Assembly: GCA_037968415.1 (NCBI GenBank)
Contig: JBBKVM010000136.1
Span: 4,886 to 68,885, forward strand
Reading direction: 5' to 3'
From: Bacteroidia bacterium
GTDB taxonomy: Bacteria > Bacteroidota > Bacteroidia > AKYH767-A > JBBKVM01
Length of the DNA: 64,000 nucleotides
Under the pieces are notes generated by a model, which was not told where the DNA came from, ran no database searches, and saw only the letters and a list, made by a program, of their open reading frames with translations. A program made the translations under genes and the position numbers. Every line of letters starts with the position of its first letter. The first letter of the stretch is position 1. Below are positions 1-32,560 of the stretch, in pieces.

Positions 1-1551
1 ACTGCCGGAATATAAAATCTTGCTATCAATTTTGGTGATCAGATTCCTCAGTTCAACATCCAGAAACGGCACACGCACTTCAACCGAATGCCACATGCTC
101 ATATAGTCTGTATCTTTCAATAACTGGTTTTTCATGTACACATTAGTCTCCATCCAGCTTACTATTTCTGCTTCATGATTTTCTTTTCCAAACTCCTTCA
201 TTGCGCCATCAAACAATTTATTCTCTACATCGGCTACACTGGTGTCAAGCAATCCGGCAATTGTAGCCGGAGAAAAAAGCGCTCTGTTGAACAAATACCT
301 TTTCTCGGTAGACGTTCCGCCCAAGTAGGAGATTTTTCGAAACTTATTGGCAGGACTGTGTTCGGCCAACCGTGTAATTACCGAAGGGAGTTTGGATGTG
401 AAGGGCATGTGTGCCGTGCGAGCAAATGAAGGATATCCACCAAACAGTTCATCAGCGCCAATACCTGACAACACTGCTTTCAATCCCATTTCTTTAGCGC
501 AACGGGCTATGAAAAATGTATTGATTCCATCAATGCTGGGTTGGTCCATGGCATGGTAAACTTCCTGCATGCCTTCTTCAAAATCAACGCGTCCTATCAA
601 GCACTCCTTATGCTCACCTCTTGTAATGCCGGTAATGATATGCTGATACTTTTGCTCTGAATAATCGGATTCGTCAAATATAATGGATAGTGATTTCAAA
701 GAGTTGCCTAACTGGCGCGCGGCCAACAACGTGATAAGGCTAGAGTCCACACCACCCGATAAAAACACACCAATGGGCGCATCACTGATTAAATGCCTGC
801 TTACTGCTCGCGTAATTACTGCTCGTATTTGCTCACGCGCTTCAATTACATCAGTGATTAACTCATCTGATTTTTCGAACTTGACATAGCTTTGTAGTTG
901 GCCTGTGCGGTTGCGTACATCGTATTTAAGATAACAGCCGGCTGGCAACATTTTTACATTTGCGAGAGTGGTGTATGGCTCAGGAACAAATCCGTAAGCG
1001 AAGAAATAATACTTCCAATCAGGATTTTCATAAATTTTTAGTCCCGAATGTGTGAAAGCTCTCACCTCTGACGCAAACATGAGGCCTTTTGCAGATGAAT
1101 AATAATAAAGCGGCTTGATTCCTGAATGATCGCGCACCAACCATAGCGATTCATCGCGTTTGTCATGCAAAGCAAATGAAAACATCCCATTGAGTTTTGC
1201 AAATGCTGCCTCACCCCAATTCAAGAAAGCAAGCAAAAGTACTTCGGTATCTGACTCTGATTTAAACTTGAATCCTTTTGCTTCAAGTTCGGTACGCAAT
1301 TCCATGTAATTGTATATCTCGCCATTGTAGGAAATGGTGAGCATACCTGTCATATCTTGCATGGGCTGGTGTCCTCCAGGACTTAGGTCAATGATTGATA
1401 ATCGCCTGTGACCTAAATATACTTTCGACTCAGCATCTACGTGCATACCGGAATCATCGGGCCCGCCTCTGTGCATGCTTTCGCACATGCGCGCAACAGC
1501 CTGTTCGGGTTGCTCAACCAATGCTCCTGCCATGCCAGCTATGCGACACAT
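1..1551 (-). CDS. asnB: Asparagine synthase (glutamine-hydrolysing), N-terminal ~517 aa; the C-terminus lies beyond the window start
   Basis: Minus-strand translation from the ATG at 1551 begins MCRIAGMAGALVEQPEQAVARMCESMHRGGPDDSGMHVDA. This gives the catalytic Cys2 of a class-II glutamine amidotransferase. Downstream are SGGVDSS-type PP-loop motifs (GVFLSGGVDSSLI). The ORF runs off the window edge, so it is missing from the ORF track. Confidence 0.85.
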   Translation of the reverse strand, partial: MCRIAGMAGALVEQPEQAVARMCESMHRGGPDDSGMHVDAESKVYLGHRRLSIIDLSPGGHQPMQDMTGMLTISYNGEIYNYMELRTELEAKGFKFKSESDTEVLLLAFLNWGEAAFAKLNGMFSFALHDKRDESLWLVRDHSGIKPLYYYSSAKGLMFASEVRAFTHSGLKIYENPDWKYYFFAYGFVPEPYTTLANVKMLPAGCYLKYDVRNRTGQLQSYVKFEKSDELITDVIEAREQIRAVITRAVSRHLISDAPIGVFLSGGVDSSLITLLAARQLGNSLKSLSIIFDESDYSEQKYQHIITGITRGEHKECLIGRVDFEEGMQEVYHAMDQPSIDGINTFFIARCAKEMGLKAVLSGIGADELFGGYPSFARTAHMPFTSKLPSVITRLAEHSPANKFRKISYLGGTSTEKRYLFNRALFSPATIAGLLDTSVADVENKLFDGAMKEFGKENHEAEIVSWMETNVYMKNQLLKDTDYMSMWHSVEVRVPFLDVELRNLITKIDSKILYSGS

Positions 1552-2280: not shown

Positions 2281-3393
2281 TTACTCTTTTGAGTCCATGA
2301 TATTAAAACCACCTTCACGTAAAAACTTGCTCCGTTGCATCAACTCCAAGTCAGCGGCCACCATTTCCTTGACCAACATATCCACATCATACTTTGGCTT
2401 CCAACCCAGCTTTTGAAAAGCTTTTGAAGCATCCCCTATCAACAAGTCTACTTCGGTAGGCCTGAAATAATTTTCATCTACGGCTACCACTTCGCTACCC
2501 AGGGCCAATTTATATTCTGCGTTGTTGCATTCAACTACAACGCCAATTTCTTCTGTGCCCGATCCTTTAAACTCCACCACTATACCCAATTCAGCAAATG
2601 CCATTCGTATAAATTCACGAACAGTGGTAGTAATTCCGGTGGCCAACACAAAATCTTCAGCTATGTCATGTTGCATCATCAACCACATGCCTTCTACATA
2701 ATCTTTTGCATGCCCCCAATCTCTCTTCGCATCCAGATTTCCAAGAAACAATTTCTGTTGCATTCCCAATGCAATTTTCGCAACAGCTCTGGTGATTTTT
2801 CTGGTTACAAACGTCTCTCCTCTGATAGGTGACTCATGATTAAACAATATTCCATTACAAGCAAACATTTTGTATGCTTCGCGATAGTTTACTGTTATCC
2901 AATAAGCATACAACTTTGCTACTCCGTAGGGAGAACGGGGATAAAAAGGTGTGCGCTCGGTTTGTGGTGTTTCTTGCACCAGGCCATAAAGTTCAGAGGT
3001 GGAAGCCTGATAAAAACGAGTCTTGTCACTAAGATTCAATATCCTGATGGCTTCTAGCATTCTTAATGTCCCTATGGCATCGGAGTTTGCAGTGTATTCA
3101 GGTGTTTCAAAACTCACCTTCACATGGCTTTGGGCAGCCAGATTATAAATTTCATCGGGTTGCACTTCTTGAATAATTCTGATCAGATTGGTTGAGTCAG
3201 TAAGATCACCGTAGTGCAATCGAAGGTTTACCTCTTGCTCATGCGGGTCTTGGTAAAGGTGATCGATCCTGTCTGTGTTGAGCAGCGAACTTCTTCTTTT
3301 GATGCCGTGAACTTCATATCCTTTGCTCAACAACAGTTCTGCAAGATAGGCCCCGTCTTGACCAGTGATTCCGCTTATAAGTGCTTTTTTCAT
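2281..3393 (-). CDS. gmd: GDP-mannose 4,6-dehydratase
   Basis: 370 aa. N-terminus [33 protein letters not shown] and the NLAAQSHV motif are classic for Gmd of the SDR family. Confidence 0.93.
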
Positions 3394-3406: not shown

Positions 3407-4351
3407 TTATTGCGTTGTAATTTTATCGTAGTGCTCCACAAAATCTTTATATGCCAGTGCAATTCCTTTATCTAAATTTACTTTGTGCTTATAACCTGTG
3501 CTATGCAATTTATTCACATCGAGCAGTTTTTTAGGAGTTCCATCAGGCTTGCTTGTATCAAATGTGAGCACCCCTTCATACCCAACTATATTCTTCACCA
3601 TATGTGCCAGTTCTGAAATAGAAACTTCCTCTCCTGTACCAATATTCACCAGCTCTATTTCATCATAACTCAACATTAGGTGAAGGCATGCATCTGCCAG
3701 GTCATCCGCAAACATAAATTCGCGCAATGGCTTTCCGGATCCCCACACTTCTACGCTGGGAGCTGAACTGATTTTGGCTTCATGAAACTTGCGGATGAGA
3801 GCAGGCAGGACATGCGATTGCTGTAGGTCATAGTTATCGTTGTAACCGTATAGATTGGTGGGCATTACCGAAATAAAATTGCAGCCGTGTTGCAACCTGT
3901 AACTCTCGCACATTTTTACGCCCGCAATCTTTGCAATGGCATAGGGCTCGTTGGTATATTCAAGTGGCCCTGTAAGCAAACTGTTTTCCGCCAATGGCTG
4001 TGGTGCCATCTTGGGATATATGCATGACGACCCAATAAACATCAACTTTTTCACGCCATTTAAAAATGCGTGATGAATGATGTTATTTTGTATCATCAGA
4101 TTATCATAAATAAAATCTGCGCGATACTCATTATTTGCTGCTATACCGCCCACTTTGGCTGCTGCTAAAAAAACATACTCAGGTTTGTGGTTGCTAAAAA
4201 ATTCAGAAGTGGCAACTTGATTTCGAAGGTCCAATTCGGCTGAAGTGCGAAAAATTTGATTATTAAAGCCAGCCTGCTTTAAACCTTTACTAATCGCGGA
4301 TCCCACCATACCCCGGTGTCCGGCAACATATATCAACGAATCTTTTTTCAC
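3407..4351 (-). CDS. fcl: GDP-L-fucose synthase (GDP-4-keto-6-deoxymannose 3,5-epimerase/4-reductase)
   Basis: 314 aa. [12 protein letters not shown] Rossmann N-terminus. It sits directly downstream of gmd, the canonical gmd-fcl pair. Confidence 0.9.
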
Positions 4352-4376: not shown

Positions 4377-5981
4377 TTAAAAATCATAGTAGTGATTGGT
4401 AATGGCTGTGCGAAAACCAAATCGCACCAATTGCGAACGTTCTTGTTGTTGATCATTTGAAAGATCGCGCATGGCCACACCCAGCTCAATATTAAAATTG
4501 TATTTAGGATTTACGAGATAAGAAACTGTTACTTCTGTATTCAGAAGTGTGGTTTCCAAGCCCTGAAGCATTTTGTGACCATACTCAAAAGGGCGGCTGG
4601 AATAATTTTTGAAAATATTATGTCCATAATTGAAGCCGGCTGAATCGGCACCATACATTGCGTATACCATTTTAGCATCCAAATGAAAACGGTGATATGA
4701 ATAACCCAATATGCTTACTGATTCCCAGAAGTTGGCTCCCAACGGATGTGCAAGTGCTTCGTTGTAATGCCCGTAGTTTTGTTGCGTGCTCAAATGCTGA
4801 TAAGTGTAGGGTCGCACAAAATTATACTCTGTTTGGAATCTCAAACCAGGAAGTCCCAGGTCCAGACCTTTGTATCCAATCTGAAAGCCTTGCTTATTTC
4901 CATGCCATCCATTGCCGCTTTTAACTTCGTCCAATAAAAATTCATCGAGCACAATTTGGCCGTACAGAATATGCTTGGCAGTAATTCGATAACTTGTGTT
5001 GAGTCCCAATAATGCATTATCGGGTGAACCAAGCGAAAACTCAACAGGACGAAAAAATATAATCGGGTTCAGGTAATTGATGTCGTATCCGCGCTGGCCA
5101 GTGGTATCGCTTTTCCAAATAATGCCTTCAAACAATCCCACACTCAATCGCTTGCCCACCGCCAAATCGAGGTAATGAAATGTTCCATATTTTTTTCGGA
5201 ACCCCACAGCAGGATCAAATGGCGTGCGCAAATCCTGAAAAACCGTATATAAATTGGTATATTTTATTTTCCAGACATCGGTAGTTACTTTCAGGGCCGG
5301 GTAATTGAAAGCATTGTCGGACAAAAGTAATGACCTGTATCCGTCTCCGATAAAATTTTTGTCATTGCCAAACTGGAATGTAAAATGGCGGGAGGGTTTG
5401 AAGATTACATTGCCGTAGGCCATTGCGAAATCAAATCCATTATCCTTAAAAGTTTTGATACGACCCTGACCGGGAACCACTTTATTGATGCGAATACTTG
5501 AATCAAGGTAGTGGACAAAAGTGGCCTGATTTTCAAAAAACATGGTATTGAAATACACTTTGTTTCCAATCTTTCCTTCCGCACGAACTCCTCTTGTGTT
5601 CACATACACATTGTCATCATTCTCCAAATCTCTTCCCACTTGTAAATCAACCAGCGGGTCTATGTTGAGCAAAAAATCTTCTGTACGTACGCGCACCAAA
5701 TTTTCGTAAAGCAATTTACGTCCTACCCATGTGTTGTAAAACTTGCCGTTGCCCACTTCAAAATTGGCCACGCTATCAAAAGCCGGAAGTAAACCAATCT
5801 CATCTAAACGAAACGGTTTTACCGAAGTGTGGATGCCAGAGCCGGGAGCATAAACAATTGGTTCGTACCATTCTACCACTTTCCGATTCAACGGCAAATT
5901 AAATTGCTGAGCGAATGAATGATGGGCAGCAATTATGAATATCAGTATTATAAGTCCTGACAATTTAAGTGAATGATTCAT
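4377..5981 (-). CDS. Secreted outer-membrane beta-barrel protein, possibly capsule-assembly Wzi family
   Basis: The track ORF starts with TTG at 6005. The in-frame ATG at 5981 gives a signal peptide MNHSLKLSGLIILIFIIAAHHSFAQQ. The protein is long and rich in aromatic/Gly residues with alternating beta-strand character, and ends with a C-terminal aromatic (..YYDF). It lies in a polysaccharide-type block. The Wzi assignment rests on resemblance only. Confidence 0.4.
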   Translation of the reverse strand: MNHSLKLSGLIILIFIIAAHHSFAQQFNLPLNRKVVEWYEPIVYAPGSGIHTSVKPFRLDEIGLLPAFDSVANFEVGNGKFYNTWVGRKLLYENLVRVRTEDFLLNIDPLVDLQVGRDLENDDNVYVNTRGVRAEGKIGNKVYFNTMFFENQATFVHYLDSSIRINKVVPGQGRIKTFKDNGFDFAMAYGNVIFKPSRHFTFQFGNDKNFIGDGYRSLLLSDNAFNYPALKVTTDVWKIKYTNLYTVFQDLRTPFDPAVGFRKKYGTFHYLDLAVGKRLSVGLFEGIIWKSDTTGQRGYDINYLNPIIFFRPVEFSLGSPDNALLGLNTSYRITAKHILYGQIVLDEFLLDEVKSGNGWHGNKQGFQIGYKGLDLGLPGLRFQTEYNFVRPYTYQHLSTQQNYGHYNEALAHPLGANFWESVSILGYSYHRFHLDAKMVYAMYGADSAGFNYGHNIFKNYSSRPFEYGHKMLQGLETTLLNTEVTVSYLVNPKYNFNIELGVAMRDLSNDQQQERSQLVRFGFRTAITNHYYDF

Positions 5982-6028
5982 CGCGCAGATAAATTGAGTG
6001 TGCAAGATAGATAAAATAGAGGGCGATT

Positions 6029-6832
6029 TTAGCTGACTAAAAACCAGTCGTTAAGCAGGTTTGGCTTGTTGTATCGCATTCGCTGCCTGCTTTCATAAAA
6101 CACTACAGATTTGCCCGCTGCTTCAATAATGGCTTGCCCCGCGGCTGTGTCCCACTCCATGGTGGGCGCCAATCGAGGGTATACATCGGCAGTTCCATCG
6201 GCAACCATGCACAACTTAAGTGAGCTACCGGCTGATACCAAGTCAACATTACCGTGTTCGCGCTCTAAATCTTGAATGAATAACCTTGTATCTTCTGACA
6301 TGTGCGACCGGGAGGCAATGGCTACAAAATTAGTGCGGGTGTGCGGCAGTGGCAATGAATTTGACAACGCAACCAATTGATTAAAGCTGTTGACATCGCT
6401 CAAATCATTTTTATTTGCATCAAACAAGAAACTTCCTGACTCTAAGCTGCCGAAATAATAAAGATTGCGGTGTGGCAAGGAAACCACGCCCAGTATTGGA
6501 TATCCATTTTGAATCAGTGCGATATTGACAGTAAACTCACCATTGCGTTTCACAAATTCTTTGGTGCCATCCAGTGGATCAACCATCCACAAAAACTCCC
6601 AATTCTTGCGCAATTCATATGGAATGTCTTTCCCTTCTTCGCTCAGCACAGGTATACCCGTGGTCGAAAGAAGCGCATCAATCACCATGTGGGCATTGGT
6701 GTCAGCTTCGGTGAGTGGCGAATTATCTGATTTGTGTTCAACTTCAAAGCTGGTGTTATATACCTGCATGATGGCGTTACCGGCCTGCGCGCAGGCTTTT
6801 ATTGAAATCCATAAAAGTTCAGAATGGTTCAT
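6029..6832 (-). CDS. cysQ: 3'(2'),5'-bisphosphate nucleotidase (PAP phosphatase), inositol-monophosphatase family
   Basis: 267 aa. IMPase-family motifs (WMVDPLDGTKEF; ..SLKLCMVADGTADVY). Adjacent to cysNDC. Confidence 0.8.
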   Translation of the reverse strand: MNHSELLWISIKACAQAGNAIMQVYNTSFEVEHKSDNSPLTEADTNAHMVIDALLSTTGIPVLSEEGKDIPYELRKNWEFLWMVDPLDGTKEFVKRNGEFTVNIALIQNGYPILGVVSLPHRNLYYFGSLESGSFLFDANKNDLSDVNSFNQLVALSNSLPLPHTRTNFVAIASRSHMSEDTRLFIQDLEREHGNVDLVSAGSSLKLCMVADGTADVYPRLAPTMEWDTAAGQAIIEAAGKSVVFYESRQRMRYNKPNLLNDWFLVS

Positions 6833-6833
6833 G

Positions 6834-8123
6834 TTAAATAATCATGCCGGCCCCCACCGTTTCGTGAGTGGATTCATCTACCAATATTATACTTCCCGTG
6901 ACCCTGTTTTTACGATAGCTATCTACAAACAATGGTACGGTGGTGCGCAAGTGCACACGCGCTATGTCGTTCATGCCAATTTCAGTTACGTCTTCAATTC
7001 GATGCAAAGTGTTGATGTCAATTTTATAGCGAATCTCTTTTACCATCACGCGGGCCTCGCGCGTGGTGTGCATCACCACAAGTTTTTGTCCCTGTATTAA
7101 ATTGTGGTCGCTGAGCCAGCAAACCATCACTTCTAAATCCTGGGTAACTGTTGGCATGTTATTTTCGCGAACTAACATATCTCCACGACTGATGTCCAAT
7201 TCGTCATTGAGTGTGACGGTTACTGACATAGGGGCAAATGCCTCTGCCTGCGGGCCTTCATAAGTGTCAATACTTTTGATGGTGGTGGTGAAACCTGATG
7301 GCAACGCCATCACTTTATCTCCGGGTTTAAAAATCCCACCCGCAATGCGCCCTGCATACCCTCGGTAATCATGATGCTCCGAAGTTTGTGGTCGTGACAC
7401 AATCTGTACCGGCAGACGGCAATCGATATGATTGTGATCACCACTTATGTGCACATGCTCCAACTGGTATAACAACGTGCTGCCTTCGTACCAATCCATA
7501 TTAGTTGATTTGTTGACAATGTTGTCACCATGCAATGCGCTGATGGGAACAAACTGTATGTCTTTTACATCTAATTTGGCGCTTAGCTTTTTGTACTCGC
7601 TCACTATCTCTTCATAGACTTGTTCATCGTAGTCTACCAAATCCATTTTGTTGATGCATACAATGATGTGCGGAATCTGCAACAACGAGGCAATAAATGA
7701 ATGACGATTTGTTTGCTCTACAATTCCCTTGCGCGCATCTATGAGTATCAAAGCCAGGTTGGCTGTAGAAGCACCTGTCACCATATTGCGTGTATACTGT
7801 ATGTGGCCGGGTGTATCAGCGATGATAAATTTTCTGCGCGGTGTGGCAAAGTAACGGTATGCTACGTCAATTGTGATTCCCTGCTCGCGCTCGGCTTTCA
7901 ACCCATCGGTGAGCAAGGCAAGGTCAACATGTTTCAATCCTTTTTGCAAGCTGGTGCGTTCGATGGCAGCCAACTGATCTGCAAAAATTGATTTGCTATC
8001 CAGCAACAAGCGACCTATGAGCGTACTCTTACCATCGTCTACGCTTCCGGCAGTGGTAAAGCGCAGCAACTCCATATTTTGCAATTGCGCGGGATTGTGT
8101 TGTTTCGTTTGCGTTTTCATCAA
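6834..8123 (-). CDS. cysN: Sulfate adenylyltransferase subunit 1 (GTPase)
   Basis: 429 aa. GTPase motifs TAGSVDDGKSTLIGRLL, DTPGH, NKMD. Followed by cysD with a 4-nt overlap. Confidence 0.9.
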   Translation of the reverse strand: MMKTQTKQHNPAQLQNMELLRFTTAGSVDDGKSTLIGRLLLDSKSIFADQLAAIERTSLQKGLKHVDLALLTDGLKAEREQGITIDVAYRYFATPRRKFIIADTPGHIQYTRNMVTGASTANLALILIDARKGIVEQTNRHSFIASLLQIPHIIVCINKMDLVDYDEQVYEEIVSEYKKLSAKLDVKDIQFVPISALHGDNIVNKSTNMDWYEGSTLLYQLEHVHISGDHNHIDCRLPVQIVSRPQTSEHHDYRGYAGRIAGGIFKPGDKVMALPSGFTTTIKSIDTYEGPQAEAFAPMSVTVTLNDELDISRGDMLVRENNMPTVTQDLEVMVCWLSDHNLIQGQKLVVMHTTREARVMVKEIRYKIDINTLHRIEDVTEIGMNDIARVHLRTTVPLFVDSYRKNRVTGSIILVDESTHETVGAGMII

Positions 8124-9025
8124 AAATATCCCTGCTTTTTACGGTCCTCCATTGCTGTTTCTGATCGTTTGTCATCCGTGCGACTGTCGCGTTCGGTTAC
8201 GGTGGTAGTGGCAATCTCTGCAATAATTTCGTCCAGTGAGTTGGCTTTGGAACTGATGGCTCCAGTGCAAGTCATGTCACCTACAGTACGAAATCTTACT
8301 TGCATCGGAGCTGGTTTTTCACCGTGGCGCAGAGAAATAAATTCTGAGTATGCAAGTATCCTGTCCTCTCTGATGATGCACTCGCGTTGATGTGTAAAAT
8401 ATACTTGAGGCAACTCTATTTTCTCGGTGGCTATGTATTGCCATATGTCCATTTCGGTCCAGTTGCTAAGTGGAAATATTCTGAAATGCTCACCCACATT
8501 TTTCTTACCATTAAAAATATTCCAGAGCTCTGGCCTTTGGTTTTTAGGATCCCATTGTCCAAATTCATCGCGGTGAGAAAAAAATCTTTCTTTGGCCCGT
8601 GCTTTTTCTTCATCCCGTCTGGCCCCGCCCATTGCCGCATCGGTTTTCAACTCTTCAATGGCATCCAGCAGAGTGGTTGTTTGCAACATGTTGCGGCTGG
8701 CATTGGCGCCCCGCTCCTCTCGCACACGGCCTTTATCTATGCTGTCCTGCACCTTTCGCACAATCAAATTAGCCTTCATCTTTTTTGCAATGGCATCGCG
8801 GTAAGCAATCACTTCTGGAAAATTATGACCAGTGTCTACATGCAACAACGGAAATGGAAATGGGGCCGGGTGAAAGGCTTTCATTGCCAGATGTGCCAGC
8901 ACAATGGAATCTTTACCTCCTGAAAAAAGTAATACCGGCCTTTGAAACTGGGCGGCTACTTCACGAATTACATAAATGGATTCTGACTCCAGTTCGCGCT
9001 GATGGGTGAGATTATAGGAATACAT
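8120..9025 (-). CDS. cysD: Sulfate adenylyltransferase subunit 2
   Basis: 301 aa. PAPS-reductase-like PP-loop VLLFSGGKDSIVLAHLA. Confidence 0.9.
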   Translation of the reverse strand: MYSYNLTHQRELESESIYVIREVAAQFQRPVLLFSGGKDSIVLAHLAMKAFHPAPFPFPLLHVDTGHNFPEVIAYRDAIAKKMKANLIVRKVQDSIDKGRVREERGANASRNMLQTTTLLDAIEELKTDAAMGGARRDEEKARAKERFFSHRDEFGQWDPKNQRPELWNIFNGKKNVGEHFRIFPLSNWTEMDIWQYIATEKIELPQVYFTHQRECIIREDRILAYSEFISLRHGEKPAPMQVRFRTVGDMTCTGAISSKANSLDEIIAEIATTTVTERDSRTDDKRSETAMEDRKKQGYF

Positions 9026-9042
9026 GAATACTATTTGAAACG

Positions 9043-9654
9043 CTAATTTTTTATCTTTTTAAGCACATAATTTGCAACCATGCCGGCACTTTCAGCGATG
9101 CTCAATGAATGTGTATCTATTTCTATTTCTGCATTTGAAGGTGCTTCATACGGGGCACTGACTCCGGTGAACGACTCAATGAGGCCTGCGCGCGCTTTGG
9201 CATAAAGCCCTTTCACATCGCGCTCCTCACACACTTCCAACGGACAGTTTACGAATACTTCAATAAACTCATCGACAGACACCAATTCACGCACTCTGGC
9301 CCGCTCAGCTGCCGATGGTGATATAAAGGAAGACAACACTACCACTCCTGCATCAACAAACAACTTAGCCACTTGCCCCACACGCCTTATATTCTCATCT
9401 CTATCTGCTTCACTAAACCCAAGATCGCTGTTGAGCCCCATCCGCAAATTATCTCCATCCAGCAGATAGGTGTGTATATTTTGGGCATGCAGCATTTCTT
9501 CCACCGCACCGGCCACCGTTGATTTGCCTGACCCTGATAATCCGGTAAACCACACTATTGCCGGTTTGTGCCCAGACTGTGCAATTCTTTCAGCTTTGGA
9601 CACCGGATGATGGTGCGCAAAAATATTTCTTTTTTCGTTCATTCTATCAAGCAA
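9043..9654 (-). CDS. cysC: Adenylyl-sulfate (APS) kinase
   Basis: 203 aa. P-loop [15 protein letters not shown] and LDGDNLR motif. Confidence 0.9.
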
Positions 9655-11416
9655 GTCCGTACAAAAATACCAACATTGTCACAGTAACAATAAAAGCAAT
9701 CAAATTCATAGGTATACCCACTCGTAAAAAATCTTTGAAGTGATATCCACCGGGACCATAAATCATAAGATTTGTTTGATATCCAAACGGTGTGGCAAAA
9801 CTGGCCGAACCTGCAAATGCTACTGCCAAAACAAATGGCTTGGGATCTACTCCCAAGCTGTGCGCAGCGACCACAGCCACAGGAAACACAATAGAGGCGG
9901 CAGCCGCATTGGTAATAAGTTCAGTGAGTAACGTGGTAAGTATGTAAATACCTGCCAACACACCTATAACTCCAAAAGGAGCGAACCAGCCCAAAATGTG
10001 CGATGACATCACTTCTGCCAATCCACTGTTGATAATGGCTTTGCTCAGCGCAATGGCCATCGCAAGTACCAATACAAGATCAAAATCAACGTGCTTTCTT
10101 ATTTCCGCAAAATTGATAATCTTCGCTAACAAACAGATCACCACCAGCAAAAACAAAGATTGAAACAATGGCATCAATTGGAACGTGGACATCAAGATGG
10201 CAATGAATGTACCCCCTATCACCAGTGCTGACGCAGCCTTGTCAACTCTCTTTATTTCTTTCACTTTTGAGATTAGGTAAAGGTCGCGCGAGTTTCGCAT
10301 GCGAGTAAAAAAATCTTTTCCGGTGATGAGCAATATCAAGTCGCCCGCGCGCAGTGTGATTTCTCCAAGCTTTCCGCTTATTCGCTCTCCATCACGATGA
10401 ATGGCTACAATGGCACCATCGAACACACCTCTAAAATCAGTGTCGTTTACTACTTTGCCCACCAGACTTGAATTGCTGGAAACCACTACCTCCACTACTT
10501 CTACTGCATCGCGACCATTTAAATTACTTGCGCTCGGCAGTTGCAAATCCTGACTTTCTTTTAAAAGATCTGCCACCGTTTCAGTAGCGCCAGCAAATAT
10601 GAGTATGTCATTTTCTTCAATCACATCCGAAGGCCCCACGGGTGCAATCTTATAATCCTTGCGCACAATTTCTACCAGAAACAATCCTGTGAGATGACGC
10701 AACTGTGCCTTCTCTACCATCTTACCTATGTAAGTGGATCCGGCCGGCACCACCGTTTCAACAAGGTACTCTCGTGAATGCGATTTAAATTCATCAATCA
10801 CATCTGCACGCTCGGGCAAGAGGCGATGACCGAATAGCAAAAGGAAAATAAATCCAATTACCATCAATGGCAAACCAATCAGCGTAAAATCAAACATGTA
10901 CAACGGCTCAAGCCCCGACTCGGTGGCCAGTCCGTTTACAATCAAATTGGTGCTGGTGCCTATTAAAGTGAGCGTGCCACCTAAAATAGTAGCATAAGAC
11001 AGTGGGATGAGTAATCGCGATGGGCTAATGCCTTTGCGCTTGCCAAGCTGGGTAATGTAGGGCATAAGTATGGCCACCAGCGGGGTGTTGTTTACAAAAC
11101 CCGACACACTACCCGAACTGAACATAATGCGCGCGAGCAACGCACGGTATGACAATTGCCCTTTGGTGAACTTCTTAAATATATATTCGATGAGACCAGT
11201 CTTCTGAATAATACCCGCTACGATGAGGAGCATTACTATGACAGCTATTTCTTTATTGGCAAATCCGGCAAGCGACTCCTCAGGAGTCAGAATTCCTGCC
11301 AGATTAAATACAACCACACAACACATCAATATCATCACCGGACGCATCCAGTTTTTGTACAGCACTACCACCAGCATAGCAAGCGATAGCAACACGATAA
11401 TTGATGATGAATTCAT
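9647..11416 (-). CDS. SLC13/DASS-family anion permease with two central TrkA-C domains (putative sulfate transporter)
   Basis: 589 aa, ATG start. Multi-pass hydrophobic N- and C-terminal halves with a soluble central segment. Overlaps cysC by 8 nt, which suggests translational coupling. Confidence 0.75.
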
Positions 11417-11510
11417 GCCCGGTAGAAAAAATTACTTGAAAAGAATTATTCGTGCCAGTGTTATTCCGCCAAAGATAACATTTGGGGCATGTCGGCCACA
11501 TTAAAAAACA

Positions 11511-12500
11511 TTAAAATCCGATGGGATGCCAGGTGGTCTTTATCTCTTGAAATTTCATGATAAAATAAGGCGACTGACCCTGCGCGCTGTTCCACTTAAT
11601 ATCTTTCGTTATAATTGCCCTTTTTACATTGTCCGCTGCATTTGTTTGCACAAGTTTTGCATGTTCGGCTACATTGCCGCAGTACCACACTGCGTTCACA
11701 TCCATGTGCAAAGAGAAATGGCCGGCCAGTTCTTTTTCAAAACCGGTAATCAAATTAACCACGCCCGCAGGCAGGTCGGAAGAATGAAGCACTTCAGCAA
11801 ACGAAATGGCCGGTGCAGGAGCTCCTTCGGGAGCCAATACTACACAGGTATTGCCACCTGCAATAATAGGTGCTATCACCGATATCAAACCTAATAGCCC
11901 TGAGGCAGGCGGGGCTATCGCGGCCACCACTCCGGTAGGTTCCGGTACCGAAAAATTAAAATGTGATGACTCAACAGGATTTACACTACTAAATAACTGA
12001 ATAAACTTATCGGTCCAACCGGCATAATGGATAAGCCGATCAATGGATTGCTCAACCTGCAGCGATGCTTCGCGCGCGCTCAAGCCCGACCATTGTAACT
12101 CTGCCACAAACTGCTCGCTACGCCCTTCAAGCACCTCAGCCATCCGATACAATATTTGCCCGCGGTTGTAAGCCGACTTATCCGCCCATCCCTGCTGGGC
12201 CTTGCGCGCGGCCACCACAGCATCGCGAAAATCTTTGCGACTGCCGTGACACATATTGGCCACGTTTTTACCCTGCCCATCTTTGAACACAAAATAATGT
12301 CCCGATTCGGTGCGAGGAAATTTACCATCGATGTACAACTTATACGTTTTCAATACTTTCAACCGCTCGCTATTCGCTTTGCCCGAGCCGTTCACAGAGA
12401 CTCCATTGGAGGCTGCTTTTTTTATAGTTTCTTCTTTAGTGTTCTTATCCATTGTATTAATAATCTCAATATTATTATTCCATTGCTTGAAGGTATGCAT
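11511..12500 (-). CDS. Aldehyde-dehydrogenase-like protein, NAD-binding/N-terminal portion only; no catalytic Cys/Glu region
   Basis: 329 aa. It aligns by eye with the upstream full ALDH through the ..GNTCVVLAPEGAPAPAISFAEV..LPAGVVNLITG.. Rossmann region, then ends where the ELGGK / FxNxGQxCxAxSR catalytic motifs should be. Only 94 nt separate its stop from the next gene, so a frameshifted remnant of a full ALDH is unlikely. An alternative start lies at 12452 (MDKNTKEET). Confidence 0.6.
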   Translation of the reverse strand: MHTFKQWNNNIEIINTMDKNTKEETIKKAASNGVSVNGSGKANSERLKVLKTYKLYIDGKFPRTESGHYFVFKDGQGKNVANMCHGSRKDFRDAVVAARKAQQGWADKSAYNRGQILYRMAEVLEGRSEQFVAELQWSGLSAREASLQVEQSIDRLIHYAGWTDKFIQLFSSVNPVESSHFNFSVPEPTGVVAAIAPPASGLLGLISVIAPIIAGGNTCVVLAPEGAPAPAISFAEVLHSSDLPAGVVNLITGFEKELAGHFSLHMDVNAVWYCGNVAEHAKLVQTNAADNVKRAIITKDIKWNSAQGQSPYFIMKFQEIKTTWHPIGF

Positions 12501-13956
12501 CTAGTCCGTGCAGCCCGCCTTCGCGCCCCACGCCACTTTCTTTGTATCCGCCAAAAGGAGAGGTCGGGTCAAACTTGTTGTATGTATTGGCCCATACTAC
12601 TCCTGCTTTCAGATTGGAGGTAACTTTAAATATGCGTGAGCCTTTGTCGGTCCACACACCACCCGACAAACCATAGGGTGTGTTGTTAGCTTTTTCAATC
12701 GCTTCATCCACCGTGCGGAATGTCTGAATGGCCAACACAGGTCCAAAAATTTCTTCCTGCACAATGCGGCTCGACTGTGCCACCCCGGTGAAAAGAGTTG
12801 GTCTAAACCAATAGCCTTTCTTTGGCAATGCGCACGAAGACTGCCACATTTCTCCGCCTTCGTCCACGCCAATTTTCACCAGCTCTTTTATTTTGTTGAG
12901 TTGCATCTTGCTGTTGATGGCACCTATGTCGGTGTTCTTATCAAGCGGGCTGCCTACTATCAAAGTTTCAATCCGATCTTTGAGTTTGCGAATCACTTTG
13001 GGCGCCACACTCTCCTGAACAAACAGGCGTGAGCCCGCGCAACATACATGCCCTTGATTAAAAAATATTCCGTTTATAATTCCTTCTACCGCCTGATCAA
13101 TGGCAGCATCTTCGAATATTATGTTGGCTGCTTTACCACCCAACTCAAGTGTATATTTCTTGTCGGTTCCGGCCAACGCGCGTTGGATTTTTTTTCCTAC
13201 ATCGGTGCTACCGGTAAATGCAATTTTGTGGATGCCTGGATGGTTGACGATGGCCGCACCTGTGGCACCCGCCCCGGTTACAATATTTACAACACCTGCG
13301 GGCAAGCCCGCGTCTTGCATTATCTCAGCAAGCAACAGTGCAGTGAGGGGTGTAGTTTCAGCAGGTTTCAACACTACCGTATTGCCGGCAGCCAGCGCAG
13401 GGGCAATTTTCCAGGCAGCCATCAGCAACGGAAAATTCCAGGGAATAATCTGTCCGGCCACACCCAGTGATTGGGCCTTTCGACCCGGAAATGCAAACTC
13501 AAGTTTATCGGCCCAACCGGCATAATAGAAAAAATGCGCGGCCGCCAATGGAATATCAATGTCGCGCGATTCGCGAATTGGTTTGCCCCCATCCATGGAT
13601 TCCACTATGGATAACTCGCGTGCGCGCTCTTGCATCATTCGTGCGATGCGGTAAATGTATTTGGCTCGTTCCGATGGTTTCATCTTAGACCACACATTGT
13701 CATATGCAGTTCGTGCGGCTTTTACCGCCTTGTCTACATCGGCAGCGTTGGCATCGGCCACCATCGCCAGTTTAGCTTCGGTTGATGGATTGATGGTCTC
13801 AAAATATTTGCCACTTGAAGGAGCCACAAATTTACCGTTGATAAAATGGTCGTACTTGTCTTTGAGTTTTATGTTGCCCGTGCTTTCGGGCGCAGGCGCG
13901 TAACTCCAGTCGGTATCGAAATTGAGCGTTACGTTATTATCTTTTTTCTTCTTCAT
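12475..13956 (-). CDS. NAD(P)-dependent aldehyde dehydrogenase
   Basis: 493 aa. Complete ALDH motifs: GNTVVLKPAETTPLTAL, LELGGKA (catalytic Glu), FFNQGHVCCAGSRLF (catalytic Cys), EEIFGPV. Confidence 0.9.
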   Translation of the reverse strand: MKKKKDNNVTLNFDTDWSYAPAPESTGNIKLKDKYDHFINGKFVAPSSGKYFETINPSTEAKLAMVADANAADVDKAVKAARTAYDNVWSKMKPSERAKYIYRIARMMQERARELSIVESMDGGKPIRESRDIDIPLAAAHFFYYAGWADKLEFAFPGRKAQSLGVAGQIIPWNFPLLMAAWKIAPALAAGNTVVLKPAETTPLTALLLAEIMQDAGLPAGVVNIVTGAGATGAAIVNHPGIHKIAFTGSTDVGKKIQRALAGTDKKYTLELGGKAANIIFEDAAIDQAVEGIINGIFFNQGHVCCAGSRLFVQESVAPKVIRKLKDRIETLIVGSPLDKNTDIGAINSKMQLNKIKELVKIGVDEGGEMWQSSCALPKKGYWFRPTLFTGVAQSSRIVQEEIFGPVLAIQTFRTVDEAIEKANNTPYGLSGGVWTDKGSRIFKVTSNLKAGVVWANTYNKFDPTSPFGGYKESGVGREGGLHGLDAYLQAME

Positions 13957-13987: not shown

Positions 13988-14911
13988 TTAGTCTTTTGAG
14001 AAATAGTCGATAGACTGATAAGCGCCTGTTTGCGATTTCATTAACTGCATGAGCAAGTCATTGGCCAATGCGCTGGCCCCAAAGCGAAAGTAATCTGCAT
14101 GCAGCCATGCGTTGCCCAGCGTTTCGCGCACCATTACCAAATACTGCAATGCAATTTTTGAAGTACTGATGCCTCCTGCCGGTTTCATGCCAATCATTTT
14201 TCCGGTGTTGTAGTAATGATCGCGTATGGTTTCGAGCATCACCAGTGTGACAGGAAGTGTGGCCGCGGGCTGCACCTTGCCCGTAGATGTTTTTATAAAA
14301 TCGGCTCCCGCATGTATGGCCAGCTCGCTGGCTTTTCGCACATTATCAAGTGTGGTGAGTTCACCTGTTTCCAATATTACTTTCAGGTGTGCCTCGCCAC
14401 AGGCTTCTTTCACTGCGGCTATTTCATCAAATACAAAATTGTATTCACCGGTAAGAAAACGGCCACGACTAATCACCATATCAATTTCATCTGCGCCTTC
14501 GCCCACGGCCCAACGCGTTTCTGTCAGTTTAAACTTAAGATTTGACATACCGCTGGGAAATGCAGTGGCCACAGATGCCACATGTATCAGCGACCCTTTG
14601 AGCGCCTCGCGTGCGATCTTCACCATATTGGGGTACACACACACAGCTGCTACGGCAGGCACATCCAATGTTTCGTGAGGTCGTTTGGCTTTGGCGCACA
14701 GTTGTTTCACCTTGCCCGGTGTATCGCGCGCCTCCAGCGTGGTGAGGTCTATCATCGACATGGCCATTTTGAGCGCATGCACTTTCGAATCGGTTTTGAT
14801 GCTACGCTTGCACAGCCTCGCCACCCGTTCTTCCACACCTACCTGATCTATAGGTGTTACAAATTGCTGATCAAACAAACCGGTTGGTTTGCTTATCGCT
14901 GCTTTTTTCAT
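13988..14911 (-). CDS. deoC: Deoxyribose-phosphate aldolase (long form)
   Basis: MSMIDLTTLE.., GADEIDMVI, and FIKTSTGK with the Schiff-base Lys. I chose the start at ATG 14911 (MKKAAISK). The track's longer ORF (to 14998) would run through a terminator hairpin that belongs to the upstream tonB gene. Confidence 0.8.
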   Translation of the reverse strand: MKKAAISKPTGLFDQQFVTPIDQVGVEERVARLCKRSIKTDSKVHALKMAMSMIDLTTLEARDTPGKVKQLCAKAKRPHETLDVPAVAAVCVYPNMVKIAREALKGSLIHVASVATAFPSGMSNLKFKLTETRWAVGEGADEIDMVISRGRFLTGEYNFVFDEIAAVKEACGEAHLKVILETGELTTLDNVRKASELAIHAGADFIKTSTGKVQPAATLPVTLVMLETIRDHYYNTGKMIGMKPAGGISTSKIALQYLVMVRETLGNAWLHADYFRFGASALANDLLMQLMKSQTGAYQSIDYFSKD

Positions 14912-14928
14912 TTCAAAATTCTTTTGTC

Positions 14929-14936
14929 CAAAGTTA
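14929..14936 (-). promoter_or_regulatory. Candidate Bacteroidota -7 box (TAACTTTG on the minus strand) for a deoC-ALDH transcript
   Basis: CAAAGTTA on the plus strand is TAnnTTTG on the minus strand. Its 3' edge (14929) lies 17 nt upstream of the deoC ATG (14911), immediately downstream of a terminator. Confidence 0.25.
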
Positions 14937-14959
14937 AGGAATAATTGGCCACCGAAAAG

Positions 14960-14995
14960 CAACAAAAAAGCGCCAGCCATGCGAGGCTGACGCTT
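14960..14995 (-). terminator. Rho-independent terminator downstream of tonB (15014)
   Basis: Minus-strand RNA: AAGCGUCAGCC-ucgcau-GGCUGGCGCUU followed by UUUUGUUGCUUUU. The stem is perfect (one G.U) only in the minus-strand sense. Confidence 0.55.
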
Positions 14996-15013
14996 CATTC
15001 CGGGAATGTTTAT

Positions 15014-15739
15014 TTACCGGGTTGAGATTCTTATTGGCAGGGTATATATTACCGATACCTTTTGATCGCGCTGCTCGCCAGCGGTCCACACCGGCATATT
15101 GTTCAGCACATTCAAGGCCATCTGGTCAACACCAAAACCCAATGAGTTTTTCAGTTTCACATCGCGCACTTTGCCATCAGCACCCACTACAAAAGTGGTA
15201 TAAAGGGTTCCGTTAACTTTATTCCTGAGTGCTTCATCGGGTATCCGGATATTTTTCTGCAAATACTCCATCAGCGTGGCAATCGAACAATCATTTCGTG
15301 CTTTTTCGCTTCCTCGATTATTGCAACCCTTGAAAACAGGCATGCGCTCTACACTCACAAAAGGCAAGTCATTACCCGGCACATATGGCTCAACAATGGG
15401 TGGCAAGTCTATCAGCAACGAGTCATGGGCGGGTGCAACTGTGGGGTCTGGGTGCGTGTTGGCAACCTGACGAAAACGATCATCAATTGGCTGTGGCTTA
15501 CTAATTTTTTCGAGCTTAAATTTTGGTGGCTCTGGCGTCTTGGGTGGGTCCGTGCGCGTAACAGGAATCATTAGTAAGTCTTCGGTACCTGGCTCCAAAT
15601 TCCAAACAATGGGCGCAGCTATGCGCGTGGTCCAGCTAAAAGCCAGAATAATAACCAATGATGAAACAATGTATCCGATGCGGATAAATACAGGGCGCTG
15701 TTGTTCCAGCTTGCCGGCAGATCTTTTTTGCTTTTCCAT
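15014..15739 (-). CDS. TonB-family energy transducer (C-terminal TonB domain)
   Basis: N-terminus MEKQKR.. plus a TM helix, paralogous to the gene at 16568-17275. Pro/Lys-rich spacer. C-terminal ..FKGC..TLPIRI TonB fold. Start placed at ATG 15739 by homology with its paralog; the track ORF extends to 15808. Confidence 0.7.
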   Translation of the reverse strand: MEKQKRSAGKLEQQRPVFIRIGYIVSSLVIILAFSWTTRIAAPIVWNLEPGTEDLLMIPVTRTDPPKTPEPPKFKLEKISKPQPIDDRFRQVANTHPDPTVAPAHDSLLIDLPPIVEPYVPGNDLPFVSVERMPVFKGCNNRGSEKARNDCSIATLMEYLQKNIRIPDEALRNKVNGTLYTTFVVGADGKVRDVKLKNSLGFGVDQMALNVLNNMPVWTAGEQRDQKVSVIYTLPIRISTR

Positions 15740-15940
15740 GAGATAGGTTTTGTTGGTTTTATTAATTAGATGCAGACACCCTTTATTTTCCATACTATGC
15801 TTTTGCATAACGGTTTAACCATTCTTTTTATTTGTCAAATGACGAAATGAGCTTTTTTCTGCCATAACTCTATTTCCTTTTGCGCATTATTATTGATAAA
15901 TTGACTTTTTCAACAACTAAAACCAATAATTACAAATACC

Positions 15941-17284: not shown

Positions 17285-17677
17285 TTAATATTTTAGGTTC
17301 GATACCTTTCCGTAGATAATGTGAAATAACAAAACTCCTATCACAACTCCAACTGAATTCGCAATAAAATCCATTACATCGGCCATTCTGCCATTCTGGA
17401 GGAACATTTGCATGGTCTCCGTAAGTGCACCATACAGTAAACTTATGGTGGCAGCGGCAGGCACAGCAATATAACGCAGGCTTTTGTAGGTGTATTGTTT
17501 TATGAAGCCTACGGTAAGTAGCAATACCAACACGGCAAACACAAATGCATGGGCAGCCTTATCGAAGGTGAAAAAACTCCAAAAAGAAAGGTCAGGAAAC
17601 TCTTCGCCCGATAGCACGCACAGCACAAATATAAATGCCGCCCATACCAACGCATATAAGTTGTACCTGAAAAACAT
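17285..17677 (-). CDS. VanZ-family membrane protein
   Basis: 130 aa with 3-4 TM helices. VanZ-like pattern (..AFIFVLC..KAAHAFVFAVL..). 2-nt gap from gcvH. Confidence 0.55.
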   Translation of the reverse strand: MFFRYNLYALVWAAFIFVLCVLSGEEFPDLSFWSFFTFDKAAHAFVFAVLVLLLTVGFIKQYTYKSLRYIAVPAAATISLLYGALTETMQMFLQNGRMADVMDFIANSVGVVIGVLLFHIIYGKVSNLKY

Positions 17678-29046: not shown

Positions 29047-29109
29047 GTTTAATTTTCGGAGTTGTAAAAATAGCATTTCTCTTTTTACCATCAAAGGAAA
29101 AAGATAGCC

Positions 29110-30546: not shown

Positions 30547-30578
30547 ATATCTACAATCTTAACTTAACATTTGAAACC

Positions 30579-32462: not shown

Positions 32463-32486
32463 GGCCAACTGATTTTTAAATATATT

Positions 32487-32537: not shown

Positions 32538-32560
32538 TACAACACTTACCAAATATTGAC

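Follow-up and report, generated by a model that had tools for sequence, protein, structure and literature searches.

The window analysed here, a 64-kb stretch of DNA from an uncultured, aerobic environmental member of the Bacteroidota, carries an array in the order SLC13/DASS-type permease, cysC, cysD, cysN, cysQ, outer-membrane barrel gene, fcl, gmd, UpxY gene and asnB-type amidotransferase gene (Table 1). Every gene named in the initial annotation was found where it had been placed, all on the minus strand; the range of 4377-11416 proposed for the cys module does enclose the cys genes, but it also takes in the gene for the outer-membrane protein. The array is tightly packed: cysC overlaps the 3' end of the permease gene, stop codon included, by 8 nt, cysD begins 17 nt past cysC, cysN and cysD overlap by 4 nt and cysQ starts 1 nt past cysN (spacings of -8, 17, -4 and 1 nt), while the onward gaps to asnB measure 47, 25, 13, 34 and 179 nt. 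The host has alternative complex III, a cytochrome oxidase and a type IX secretion system (T9SS).

Table 1. Features of the sulfate activation and polysaccharide array and its upstream neighbours
Feature	Coordinates	Strand	Evidence
DeoC	13988-14998	minus	Pfam/NCBIfam; upstream neighbour of cys operon
Aldehyde dehydrogenase, full-length	12475-13956	minus	Pfam/NCBIfam; upstream neighbour
Short Aldh paralogue	11511-12500	minus	Pfam/NCBIfam; upstream neighbour
Intergenic region upstream of permease, 94 nt	11417-11510	minus	One Bacteroidetes-type -7 motif, TATCTTTG, 11470-11477
SLC13/DASS-type anion permease	9647-11416	minus	Pfam CitMHS 1.6e-64, TrkA_C 6.6e-22 (two stretches), Na_sulph_symp 4.5e-15
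cysC, adenylyl-sulfate (APS) kinase	9043-9654	minus	PF01583 1e-67; TIGR00455 252.9 bits (cutoff 138.7)
cysD, ATP sulfurylase small subunit	8120-9025	minus	NF003587 450 bits (cutoff 195)
cysN, ATP sulfurylase GTPase subunit, no cysC fusion	6834-8123	minus	TIGR02034 557 bits (cutoff 336)
cysQ, 3'(2'),5'-bisphosphate nucleotidase (PAP phosphatase)	6029-6832	minus	TIGR01331 249.1 bits (cutoff 228.8)
Outer-membrane 18-strand beta-barrel, Wzi-like, 534 aa	4377-5981	minus	Signal peptide, C-terminal YYDF, AF2 + Foldseek
fcl, GDP-L-fucose synthase	3407-4351	minus	NF047922 2.6e-143, 477 bits (slightly below cutoff 500); Epimerase 8.8e-62
gmd, GDP-mannose 4,6-dehydratase	2281-3393	minus	TIGR01472 594 bits (cutoff 415)
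UpxY-family (NusG-like) antiterminator	1731-~2246	minus	NF033644 136.5 bits (cutoff 100)
asnB-type glutamine amidotransferase, cut by the window's left edge	1-1551	minus	TIGR01536 4.7e-117

All four PAPS-pathway enzymes (CysC, CysD, CysN and CysQ) exceed curated NCBIfam cutoffs. The permease, which is the first gene product of the predicted cys operon, features two cytoplasmic TrkA_C domains, matches VcINDY and human SLC13A1 in the PDB by sequence, and is predicted to be a sulfate importer. The database copy of CysQ (P0123) has a later annotated start and is 246 aa long. The region upstream of the permease is a weak candidate for the promoter of this operon; its single -7 motif is of a kind no more frequent in the window than chance predicts (55 observed, 56 expected). 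The gaps that separate the genes from cysQ to asnB contain no such motif, and promoter and terminator scans of the window returned signals at background level. We infer that the array is co-transcribed.

Pfam or NCBIfam scans that covered almost every long ORF in the window (all but a 2365-aa SprA-like ORF and the short ORFs at 50647-51078, 55841-56233 and 55866-56336) detected neither a PAPS/APS reductase domain nor a NIR_SIR or Sulfotransfer_* domain. An iterated sulfotransferase HMM run against all ORFs of 80 aa or more in the window identified no sulfotransferase, and tblastn of E. coli CysH, CysI and CysJ against the whole 64-kb DNA gave no genuine reductase match, the sole match being a weak cross-match of CysH onto cysD. 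These searches confirm the earlier statements that no cysH, cysI or cysJ lies near the cassette and that no sulfotransferase is visible in the window. The cys block is, as had been proposed, a self-contained unit for uptake, activation, PAPS synthesis and PAP recycling in 64 kb of DNA devoid of a reductase gene, and it is physically continuous with the polysaccharide genes (barrel, fcl, gmd, UpxY and asnB) on the same strand.

Pfam and NCBIfam scans of the barrel protein gave no significant match, and a profile of its family found no match in the PDB by sequence. Its AF2 model (pLDDT 71.6) features an N-terminal helical region ahead of a predicted 18-strand barrel, and Foldseek groups it with 18-strand barrels, where the best query TM-score is to Wzi (2YNK; 0.47 over 558 columns, with 12% sequence identity in the structural alignment) and the E-values for OprD/Occ and AlgE barrels are similar to that for Wzi. 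Among the matches listed, 13 of 120 homologues carry PF14052, the family of the group 1 capsule outer-membrane lectin Wzi. The protein shares with Wzi the predicted strand number, the helical region and the setting in a polysaccharide locus, but itself falls below Pfam significance; the label 'Wzi-like' holds at the level of fold and remote family and no closer. The family is large in the Bacteroidota and often adjoins WecA-type GT4 and polysaccharide genes.

As gmd and fcl lie in the same array, the glycan made here is probably fucose-containing. The UpxY start was inferred at MLDADIDG, 34 nt past the gmd stop; genes of this family stand at the start of polysaccharide operons in Bacteroidota. 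The first gene past it is asnB, whose full-length database copy (P0243) encodes 607 aa, and in the closest relative (locus L176) asnB is followed by genes for a methyltransferase and a GT4 glycosyltransferase.

Related loci place sulfotransferases in comparable surroundings. Five of them (L005, L010, L034, L035 and L048) encode a Sulfotransfer_3/_1 enzyme within a Wzx/Wzy cluster that lies upstream of this barrel gene, and cysQ lies further upstream of that cluster in all four of these with enough flank; the genes that these relatives carry between cysQ and the barrel gene are polysaccharide genes. L034, for example, runs cysN, cysQ, Wzx, Wzy, sulfotransferase, GT1, a second GT, GNAT, deacetylase, barrel, WecA, Epimerase_2 and UDP-ManNAc dehydrogenase. 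Its sulfotransferase (PF13469, 6.5e-14; PF00685, 4.3e-11), to which the enzymes of the other four loci are 47-51% identical, has as its closest solved relatives the bacterial sulfotransferase 3rnl and heparan-sulfate 3-O-sulfotransferases, themselves carbohydrate sulfotransferases. In a metagenomic set of 80 loci with CysD 67-72% identical, cysC lies directly upstream of cysD in 70, and among the 36 loci whose flanks extend 5 kb or more, 12 encode one or more members of the L034-type family. Polysaccharide-biosynthesis families dominate the flanks of these 36 loci and reductase genes are rare: Pfam analysis of 266 flank ORFs counted 33 NDP-sugar epimerase/dehydratases, 18 UDP-sugar dehydrogenases, 13 Sulfotransfer_3 proteins and 12 Wzx flippases, together with GT1 and GT2 glycosyltransferases, and neither NIR_SIR nor PAPS_reduct is among the families in the listed counts. 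In L118, cysCDNQ sits mid-operon with sugar dehydrogenases on one side and Wzx, two sulfotransferases and GT1 on the other. The cys genes share their strand with UpxY, fcl or gmd in L121, L154, L156 and L166.

Collectively, we propose, with a probability of about 0.5, that the cys genes form a cassette dedicated to PAPS supply and heading a surface-polysaccharide biosynthesis locus of the O-antigen or capsule type. Sulfate would enter through the SLC13-type permease, CysDN would form APS and CysC would phosphorylate it to PAPS. A putative PAPS-dependent carbohydrate sulfotransferase, predicted to be encoded beyond the left edge in the UpxY-asnB operon or elsewhere in the genome, would then sulfate the glycan repeat unit, the presumed acceptor, on the cytoplasmic side, CysQ would clear the inhibitory by-product PAP, and the Wzi-like barrel may display or anchor the polymer at the outer membrane.

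A PAPS supply cassette inside a polysaccharide locus is an arrangement of an already known kind. Vibrio sp. KMM 8419 has a structurally proven sulfated capsule and a locus with a second cysNDC copy and sulfotransferases (PMC11641403), and the presence of PAPS genes and sulfotransferases in one locus is, according to the authors, a hallmark of sulfated polysaccharide synthesis (PMC11641403, PMC11766843). As in the window, cysNDC lies inside a polysaccharide locus with nucleotide-sugar genes in both this strain and Cobetia marina KMM 1449 (PMC11641403, PMC11766843). Those loci, however, have identified sulfotransferases, a chemically determined sulfated product, second-copy cysNDC and ABC/Kps-type export, whereas no sulfotransferase was found in the window, where the sulfated product is a prediction and the context is UpxY and a Wzi-like barrel, with Wzx/Wzy in relatives. 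The synechan (xss) cluster of Synechocystis (Maeda et al. 2021, PMC8205485) is, like L034 and L118, a Wzx/Wzy-type cluster with dedicated sulfotransferases; it comes from another phylum, with its own regulators and no UpxY or Wzi-like barrel context, and is likened by cluster type rather than gene content.

The proposal that PAPS serves glycan sulfation is partly supported by the relatives with sulfotransferases and polysaccharide flanks, but not by those nearest in synteny. No sulfotransferase lies within reach in L081, L082, L085/86, L091/92 or L176, and none could be assigned to this genome. Housekeeping genes border the array of L085 and L091 (cysQ, gmd, fcl, barrel, WecA and a second barrel), leaving no room for one there. 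Of the 80 genome loci that encode a barrel homologue, the majority lack cys genes within 10 kb, and such genes are likewise absent near the homologue in L174 (54% identity). The DeoC-Aldh-Aldh trio adjoins the cys genes in L082, L085, L087, L125, L127 and L173, as do both aldehyde dehydrogenases in L081, where the position of DeoC is beyond the contig end. These genes are syntenic with the cys genes with no evident functional tie to sulfation; the neighbourhood is therefore not purely functional, and adjacency alone is weak evidence. In several genomes the array also lies beside SprA, GcvH and VanZ, which is typical of lineage synteny. The PAPS could instead feed ordinary assimilation through a CysH of the PAPS-reductase type and a sulfite reductase, both encoded in other parts of the genome, with polysaccharide adjacency as inherited synteny, or both uses could coexist. 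L125 matches the window in fcl, gmd, cysQ, Aldh and DeoC, and has the order cysC, cysD, cysN, a 149-aa ORF and, 0.8 kb after cysN, a 212-aa CysH-like protein of the PAPS-reductase type (31% identical to E. coli CysH, C-terminal ECGLH); L163 and L168 have cysH-like genes too, and L146 has a CysI-like fragment at a distance of 9 kb. A free-living aerobe would plausibly need sulfate assimilation, and E. coli, which has homologous CysD, CysN, CysC and CysQ and the same PAPS intermediate, likewise keeps cysDNC, cysJIH and cysQ in separate units. There, however, PAPS passes to CysH and sulfite reductase, whereas the window has no reductase gene in 64 kb and joins cysQ and the permease into the cys operon, as in the sulfotransferase-feeding Bacteroides cluster. 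Across about 170 related loci, moreover, a reductase gene lies near the cassette in only 4, against 17 loci with sulfotransferases. Given the nearest relatives, the DeoC/Aldh genes and the L125 cysH, we therefore regard assimilatory use as possible, if somewhat doubtful.

That Bacteroides cluster also raises the idea that a small molecule or lipid (sterol, phenol or glycolipid) is the acceptor of a sulfotransferase encoded elsewhere, with the polysaccharide genes as bystanders. In B. thetaiotaomicron, BT_0411-BT_0415 supply PAPS to the sulfotransferase BT_0416 (Le et al. 2022, PMC9417993). The composition of the cassette is identical, a single block of predicted sulfate permease, APS kinase, CysD, CysN and PAP phosphatase that lacks a reductase, and the window permease occupies the position of BT_0412 (PMC9417993). 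PAPS is there an end product passed to a sulfotransferase, gut Bacteroides make many PAPS-derived sulfated small metabolites (PMC13449962), and L088 has a stand-alone cysCDNQ cassette close to a PKS/NRPS gene. Nevertheless, we consider this use improbable. BT_0416, which acts on cholesterol and other steroids, is the next gene in Bacteroides, whereas neither a BT_0416-like nor any other sulfotransferase adjoins the cassette in the window, where the neighbours are polysaccharide genes. The Bacteroides framing of the initial annotation was also mistaken: the host is an environmental aerobe rather than a gut symbiont, and the closest homologue of its barrel protein shares only 60% identity. The sulfotransferases of the relatives, by comparison, are carbohydrate-sulfotransferase-like and lie inside Wzx/Wzy/GT clusters.

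All genes relevant to the PAPS cassette lie on the minus strand of the window between positions 1 and ~25,200, and their order and family assignments bear out the gene content proposed in the initial annotation. Pfam and NCBIfam analysis identified a heterodimeric ATP sulfurylase (CysD and the GTPase CysN), CysC and CysQ, which together form a predicted unit for PAPS synthesis and recycling. The NCBIfam cutoffs were exceeded by all four of these enzymes, Gmd and the antiterminator UpxY, and were narrowly missed by Fcl. The cassette has the same composition as BT_0411-0415 of Bacteroides thetaiotaomicron, where the PAPS genes feed the cholesterol sulfotransferase BT_0416 (PMC9417993), and a DASS/SLC13-type permease stands beside the PAPS genes in both BT_0411-0416 and the window. 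By analogy with the position of BT_0412, the window permease is predicted to function in sulfate uptake. However, BT_0416 is adjacent to the B. thetaiotaomicron genes, whereas the window cassette has no sulfotransferase beside it.

Minus-strand genes of the cassette region, listed in 5' to 3' order
Feature	Position	Strand	Remarks
SprA-like giant protein	18109-25206	-	
GcvH	17680-18060	-	
VanZ	17285-17677	-	
TonB_C proteins, two	16568-17275 and 15014-15808	-	
DeoC	13988-14998	-	
Aldehyde dehydrogenase (Aldh), full-length	12475-13956	-	
Aldh paralogue, short	11511-12500	-	
SLC13/DASS permease	9647-11416	-	CitMHS, 2x TrkA_C, Na_sulph_symp architecture
cysC, APS kinase	9043-9654	-	TIGR00455, 252.9 bits (cutoff 138.7)
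cysD, ATP sulfurylase subunit	8120-9025	-	NF003587, 450 bits (cutoff 195)
cysN, GTPase ATP sulfurylase subunit	6834-8123	-	TIGR02034, 557 bits (cutoff 336)
cysQ, PAP phosphatase	6029-6832	-	TIGR01331, 249.1 bits (cutoff 228.8)
Outer-membrane protein (barrel), 534 aa	4377-5981	-	Signal peptide; C-terminal YYDF
fcl	3407-4351	-	477 bits (cutoff 500), just under
gmd	2281-3393	-	Above curated NCBIfam cutoff
UpxY	1731-~2246	-	NF033644, 136.5 bits (cutoff 100)
asnB-type amidotransferase	1-1551	-	Cut by left edge of window

The genes are tightly packed. From the permease to asnB, successive gaps measure -8, 17, -4, 1, 47, 25, 13, 34 and 179 nt, such that cysQ, the barrel gene, fcl, gmd, UpxY and asnB follow one another on one strand at no more than 179 nt and the cassette is contiguous with polysaccharide genes. 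This spacing is compatible with a single transcript from the permease to asnB. A 94 nt gap separates the short Aldh gene from the permease and contains one Bacteroidetes-type -7 motif (TATCTTTG, 11470-11477). The Bacteroidetes motif TAnnTTTG occurs across the window at the frequency expected by chance, and scans of the window for sigma-70 promoters and terminators returned only background signal, which means that sequence alone cannot place the operon boundaries.

The initial annotation had also stated that the window carries neither sulfate-reduction genes nor a sulfotransferase, and this was upheld across the 64 kb by three kinds of search. Pfam or NCBIfam profiles were run on nearly all long open reading frames (ORFs), leaving out the 2365-aa SprA-like ORF and three short ORFs, an iterated sulfotransferase HMM was run on each ORF of at least 80 aa, and the window DNA was queried by tblastn with Escherichia coli CysH, CysI and CysJ as well as a CysH-like protein from a related locus (L125). 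Neither the profiles nor tblastn revealed a PAPS/APS reductase in the window; the sole CysH signal from tblastn was a weak cross-match onto cysD, as expected. Similarly, the 64 kb yielded no NIR_SIR domain or CysI/J match that would indicate a sulfite reductase. No Sulfotransfer_* domain or sulfotransferase HMM match was found anywhere in the window, and hence none beside the PAPS genes. A regular-expression search of all ORFs for PAPS-binding motifs retrieved only already-known sulfotransferases. The only tetrapyrrole-methylase gene in the window (TP_methylase, 61072-61803) was considered as a hint of siroheme synthesis (CobA) and rejected, as it encodes RsmI (TIGR00096, 256.9 bits). The window also contains no Wzx/Wzy or ABC assembly and export genes and no glycosyltransferases for this locus, which exits the left edge at asnB. 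These genes are expected past that edge; their counterparts in related loci are seen in L034, L082, L118 and L176.

The outer-membrane protein encoded between cysQ and fcl has no match in Pfam at E ≤ 1e-3 and none in NCBIfam. It belongs to a large family: more than 6000 of the 8000 candidates scored were homologues at E ≤ 0.001, and 13 of the 120 homologues listed have a precomputed match to PF14052 (Wzi). An AlphaFold (AF2) model features N-terminal helices and ~18 strands (pLDDT 71.6), and Foldseek matched this model to 18-strand barrels, with the top query TM-score of 0.47 for Wzi (2ynk) and about equally good scores for OprD/Occ and AlgE barrels. A profile of the family matched no sequence in the PDB. 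The "Wzi-like" label appears fair at the fold level only. In relatives, the barrel gene is very often located beside a WecA-type GT4 gene and is frequently a tandem pair, and this neighbourhood ties the barrel to glycan assembly. The closest homologue, from 'Bacteroidia' MAGs of soil or uncultured origin, is only 60% identical, and the top match among GTDB representatives is 54% identical.

Comparison with loci of relatives, retrieved as homologues of the window barrel or CysD and designated by L numbers, showed that much of this arrangement is shared. The two loci with barrels 60% identical to that of the window (L081 and L176) share (cysQ,) a methyltransferase, the barrel, fcl, gmd, UpxY and asnB. 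In L081 these are preceded by two Aldh genes, cysC, cysD and cysN, while L176 (GCA_051003275.1) continues after asnB with a methyltransferase and then a GT4 glycosyltransferase. The Methyltransf_24 gene between cysQ and the barrel in both loci (L081:7090-7983 and L176:1-505) occupies what is only 47 nt in the window, which marks the cysQ-barrel junction as a variable slot. L082 (GCA_037969175.1; barrel 55% identical) repeats the order TonB, DeoC, Aldh, Aldh, SLC13, cysC, cysD, cysN, cysQ and barrel, followed by ~10 kb of sugar-modifying genes encoding Epimerase_2, UDP-ManNAc dehydrogenase, DegT, AsnB, a formyltransferase, a WbmS-type deacetylase and a hexapeptide transferase. The array is rearranged yet recognisable in L083, L085/86 and L091/92, where cysN, cysD and cysC are divergent from DeoC, (Aldh, Aldh, SLC13,) cysQ and gmd; in L085/86 and L091/92, gmd is followed by fcl, barrel, WecA and a second barrel. 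In all three, the array adjoins either SprA, GcvH and VanZ or cytochrome-oxidase assembly genes. The link of the cys genes with the GDP-fucose genes, the barrel and WecA is therefore old and conserved. AsnB was rejected as a further synteny anchor, since its best non-self match is 51% identical (Chitinophagaceae, Sphingobacteriales).

No sulfotransferase was seen in L081, L176, L082, L083, L085/86 or L091/92. Two candidates were rejected: a 265-aa ORF without Pfam domains after cysN in L085 is a lipoprotein present only in L085 and L086, with no homologue in the window and no match in a sulfotransferase HMM scan of all loci, and the WbmS-like protein of L082 is a polysaccharide deacetylase (PDB 3hft).

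Cassettes that do sit with sulfotransferases were found in other relatives. In Ca. Pollutiaquabacter aromativorans (L034, CP185379.1), the cysQ-barrel slot contains genes for Wzx and Wzy, then for a sulfotransferase (PF13469, 6.5e-14; PF00685, 4.3e-11), two glycosyltransferases, a GNAT protein and a deacetylase, followed by the barrel, WecA and UDP-ManNAc genes. L005, L010, L035 and L048 each have a homologue of this sulfotransferase in the equivalent position, at 47-51% identity, and its nearest relatives of solved structure are a bacterial sulfotransferase and heparan-sulfate 3-O-sulfotransferases. A metagenome search with the window CysD found homologues, 67-72% identical, at 80 loci; cysC is directly upstream of cysD in 70 of these, and cysQ commonly follows cysN. 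Sulfotransferase-family members are encoded in 12 of the 36 CysD loci with a flank of at least 5 kb, and in several CysD loci UpxY, fcl or gmd shares a strand with the cys genes. Pfam analysis of 266 ORFs within 6 kb of CysD-related cassettes identified 33 NDP-sugar epimerase/dehydratases, 18 UDP-sugar dehydrogenases, 13 Sulfotransfer_3 proteins, 12 Wzx flippases and several GT1 and GT2 glycosyltransferases, with no reductase families among the family counts listed. L118 illustrates this clearly: two UDP-sugar dehydrogenases, an epimerase, DUF2061, cysC, cysD, cysN, cysQ and Wzx are encoded on one strand, followed on that strand by two sulfotransferases separated by one further ORF, and then by two unannotated ORFs and a GT1. 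PAPS cassettes within sulfotransferase-bearing polysaccharide loci appear widespread in environmental Bacteroidota, which is more interesting than the window itself.

The likeliest reading, to which we assign a probability of about 0.5, is that the window cassette supplies PAPS for sulfation of a surface glycan by a sulfotransferase encoded outside the window. The interpretation in the initial annotation is partly supported, in that the cassette is contiguous with polysaccharide genes and some relatives bear sulfotransferases, but its Bacteroides-type framing does not apply: the respiratory and type IX secretion (T9SS) genes of the window, and a closest barrel homologue of only 60% identity, indicate that the host is not a gut Bacteroides. 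The locus also bears a resemblance to those for sulfated capsules in Vibrio sp. KMM 8419 (PMC11641403) and Cobetia marina (PMC11766843), in which cysNDC and sulfotransferases lie inside the capsule locus and the product has been chemically proven.

PAPS can be used for both sulfation and reduction, so sulfation and assimilation are not mutually exclusive, and ordinary assimilation or dual use is a serious but less likely rival. The cassette of L125, which shares window-type synteny, is followed 0.8 kb downstream of cysN by a gene for a 212-aa CysH-like protein (L125:13114-13749) that is 31% identical to E. coli CysH and ends in the ECGLH motif of PAPS reductases. L125 is the only DeoC-linked locus with such a PAPS-reductase-type CysH, but cysH-like genes also lie beside cysD in L163 and L168, and a CysI-like fragment lies 9 kb away in L146. 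Set against this, the window has neither of the assimilatory genes (cysH and sulfite reductase) within its 64 kb. The majority of barrel-family loci lack neighbouring cys genes and L088 carries a stand-alone cysCDNQ cassette, both of which count against glycan sulfation. Use of PAPS for sulfation of a small molecule, as in the cholesterol sulfotransferase system, is a minor and improbable alternative.

Environmental Bacteroidota are usually regarded as degraders of sulfated glycans. The phylum abounds in soils, freshwater and the sea, and its members have been studied mostly as consumers of sulfated algal glycans. One study of a mat metagenome detected no sulfotransferase in its Bacteroidetes MAGs and regarded these as degraders of sulfated EPS. 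The literature searched contained no description of sulfated polysaccharide synthesis or sulfated O-antigens in Bacteroidota, which is not proof of novelty. We tentatively advance a joint reading, possible but short of probable, in which environmental Bacteroidota commonly make their own sulfated surface polysaccharides via PAPS cassettes (cysC, cysD, cysN, cysQ and an SLC13 or DUF2061 protein) within polysaccharide loci. The window host would sulfate a fucose-containing O-antigen or capsule using a sulfotransferase either encoded outside the window or from a family not yet recognised, and the deeply conserved cys-gmd-fcl-barrel(s)-WecA array adjoining SprA would serve as the core module of an anionic, sulfated glycan at the cell surface. 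If the cassette truly feeds glycan sulfation, Bacteroidota would join the short list of makers of sulfated surface polysaccharides, with implications for the cycling of sulfur and carbon in the sea and in soils, for cell-surface recognition by phage and predators, and for the supply of carbohydrate sulfotransferases for biotechnology. The window alone represents a modest gain: its component enzymes are all from familiar families, and the sulfotransferase, the crucial enzyme, lies out of sight.

DUF2061 (PF09834), a small protein that is internally duplicated and predicted to lie in the membrane, is encoded directly upstream of cysC or beside cysQ in many related loci (for example, L118:3858-4325, L087:9563-9997 and L063:~1950-2160; in one alignment it accounts for 9 of 144 flank ORFs). 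In the window this slot is occupied by the SLC13 permease. The two look like positional alternates, and DUF2061 may be an unrecognised membrane component tied to sulfate or PAPS.

The short Aldh paralogue (329 aa) spans only profile positions 9-233 of 461. It is conserved as a separate gene just after the full-length Aldh in L081, L082, L085, L087, L125, L127 and L173, and is not a pseudogene. DeoC precedes this pair in those loci wherever the contig extends far enough. Why DeoC and the two Aldh genes accompany the cys genes is not apparent from their functions; this link is old and conserved, like that with the fucose genes, and has no evident tie to sulfation. By synteny with L083 and L091 (PF14349, SprA_N), the 2365-aa ORF is predicted to be the T9SS translocon SprA, and the cys, fucose, barrel and WecA array sits beside SprA in several distant genomes.

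In addition to SprA, the window encodes T9SS cargo proteins, alternative complex III and cytochrome c oxidase. The respiratory genes form a contiguous operon (39229-50508, minus strand) in which genes for cytochrome oxidase subunits II and I come after those for alternative complex III (a multihaem cytochrome, a Mo-pterin/FeS subunit, NrfD, ActD, a cytochrome c and a 396-aa protein that matches no Pfam family). The operon shows an aerobic lifestyle; the host is an aerobic, environmental member of a deep-branching Bacteroidota lineage. The region 28324-36254 resembles an island of surface-protein genes, encoding T9SS C-terminal-sorting-domain proteins, two Omp28-family proteins, a DUF6029 protein of full length (3.3e-187) and a small beta-barrel outer-membrane protein. 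A plus-strand gene at 57404-60487 encodes 1027 aa with a TMEM260-like protein O-mannosyltransferase domain at the N-terminus (1.1e-73) and is followed by a polysaccharide deacetylase (60496-61110); it may function in protein or glycan glycosylation, separately from the cys/polysaccharide locus.
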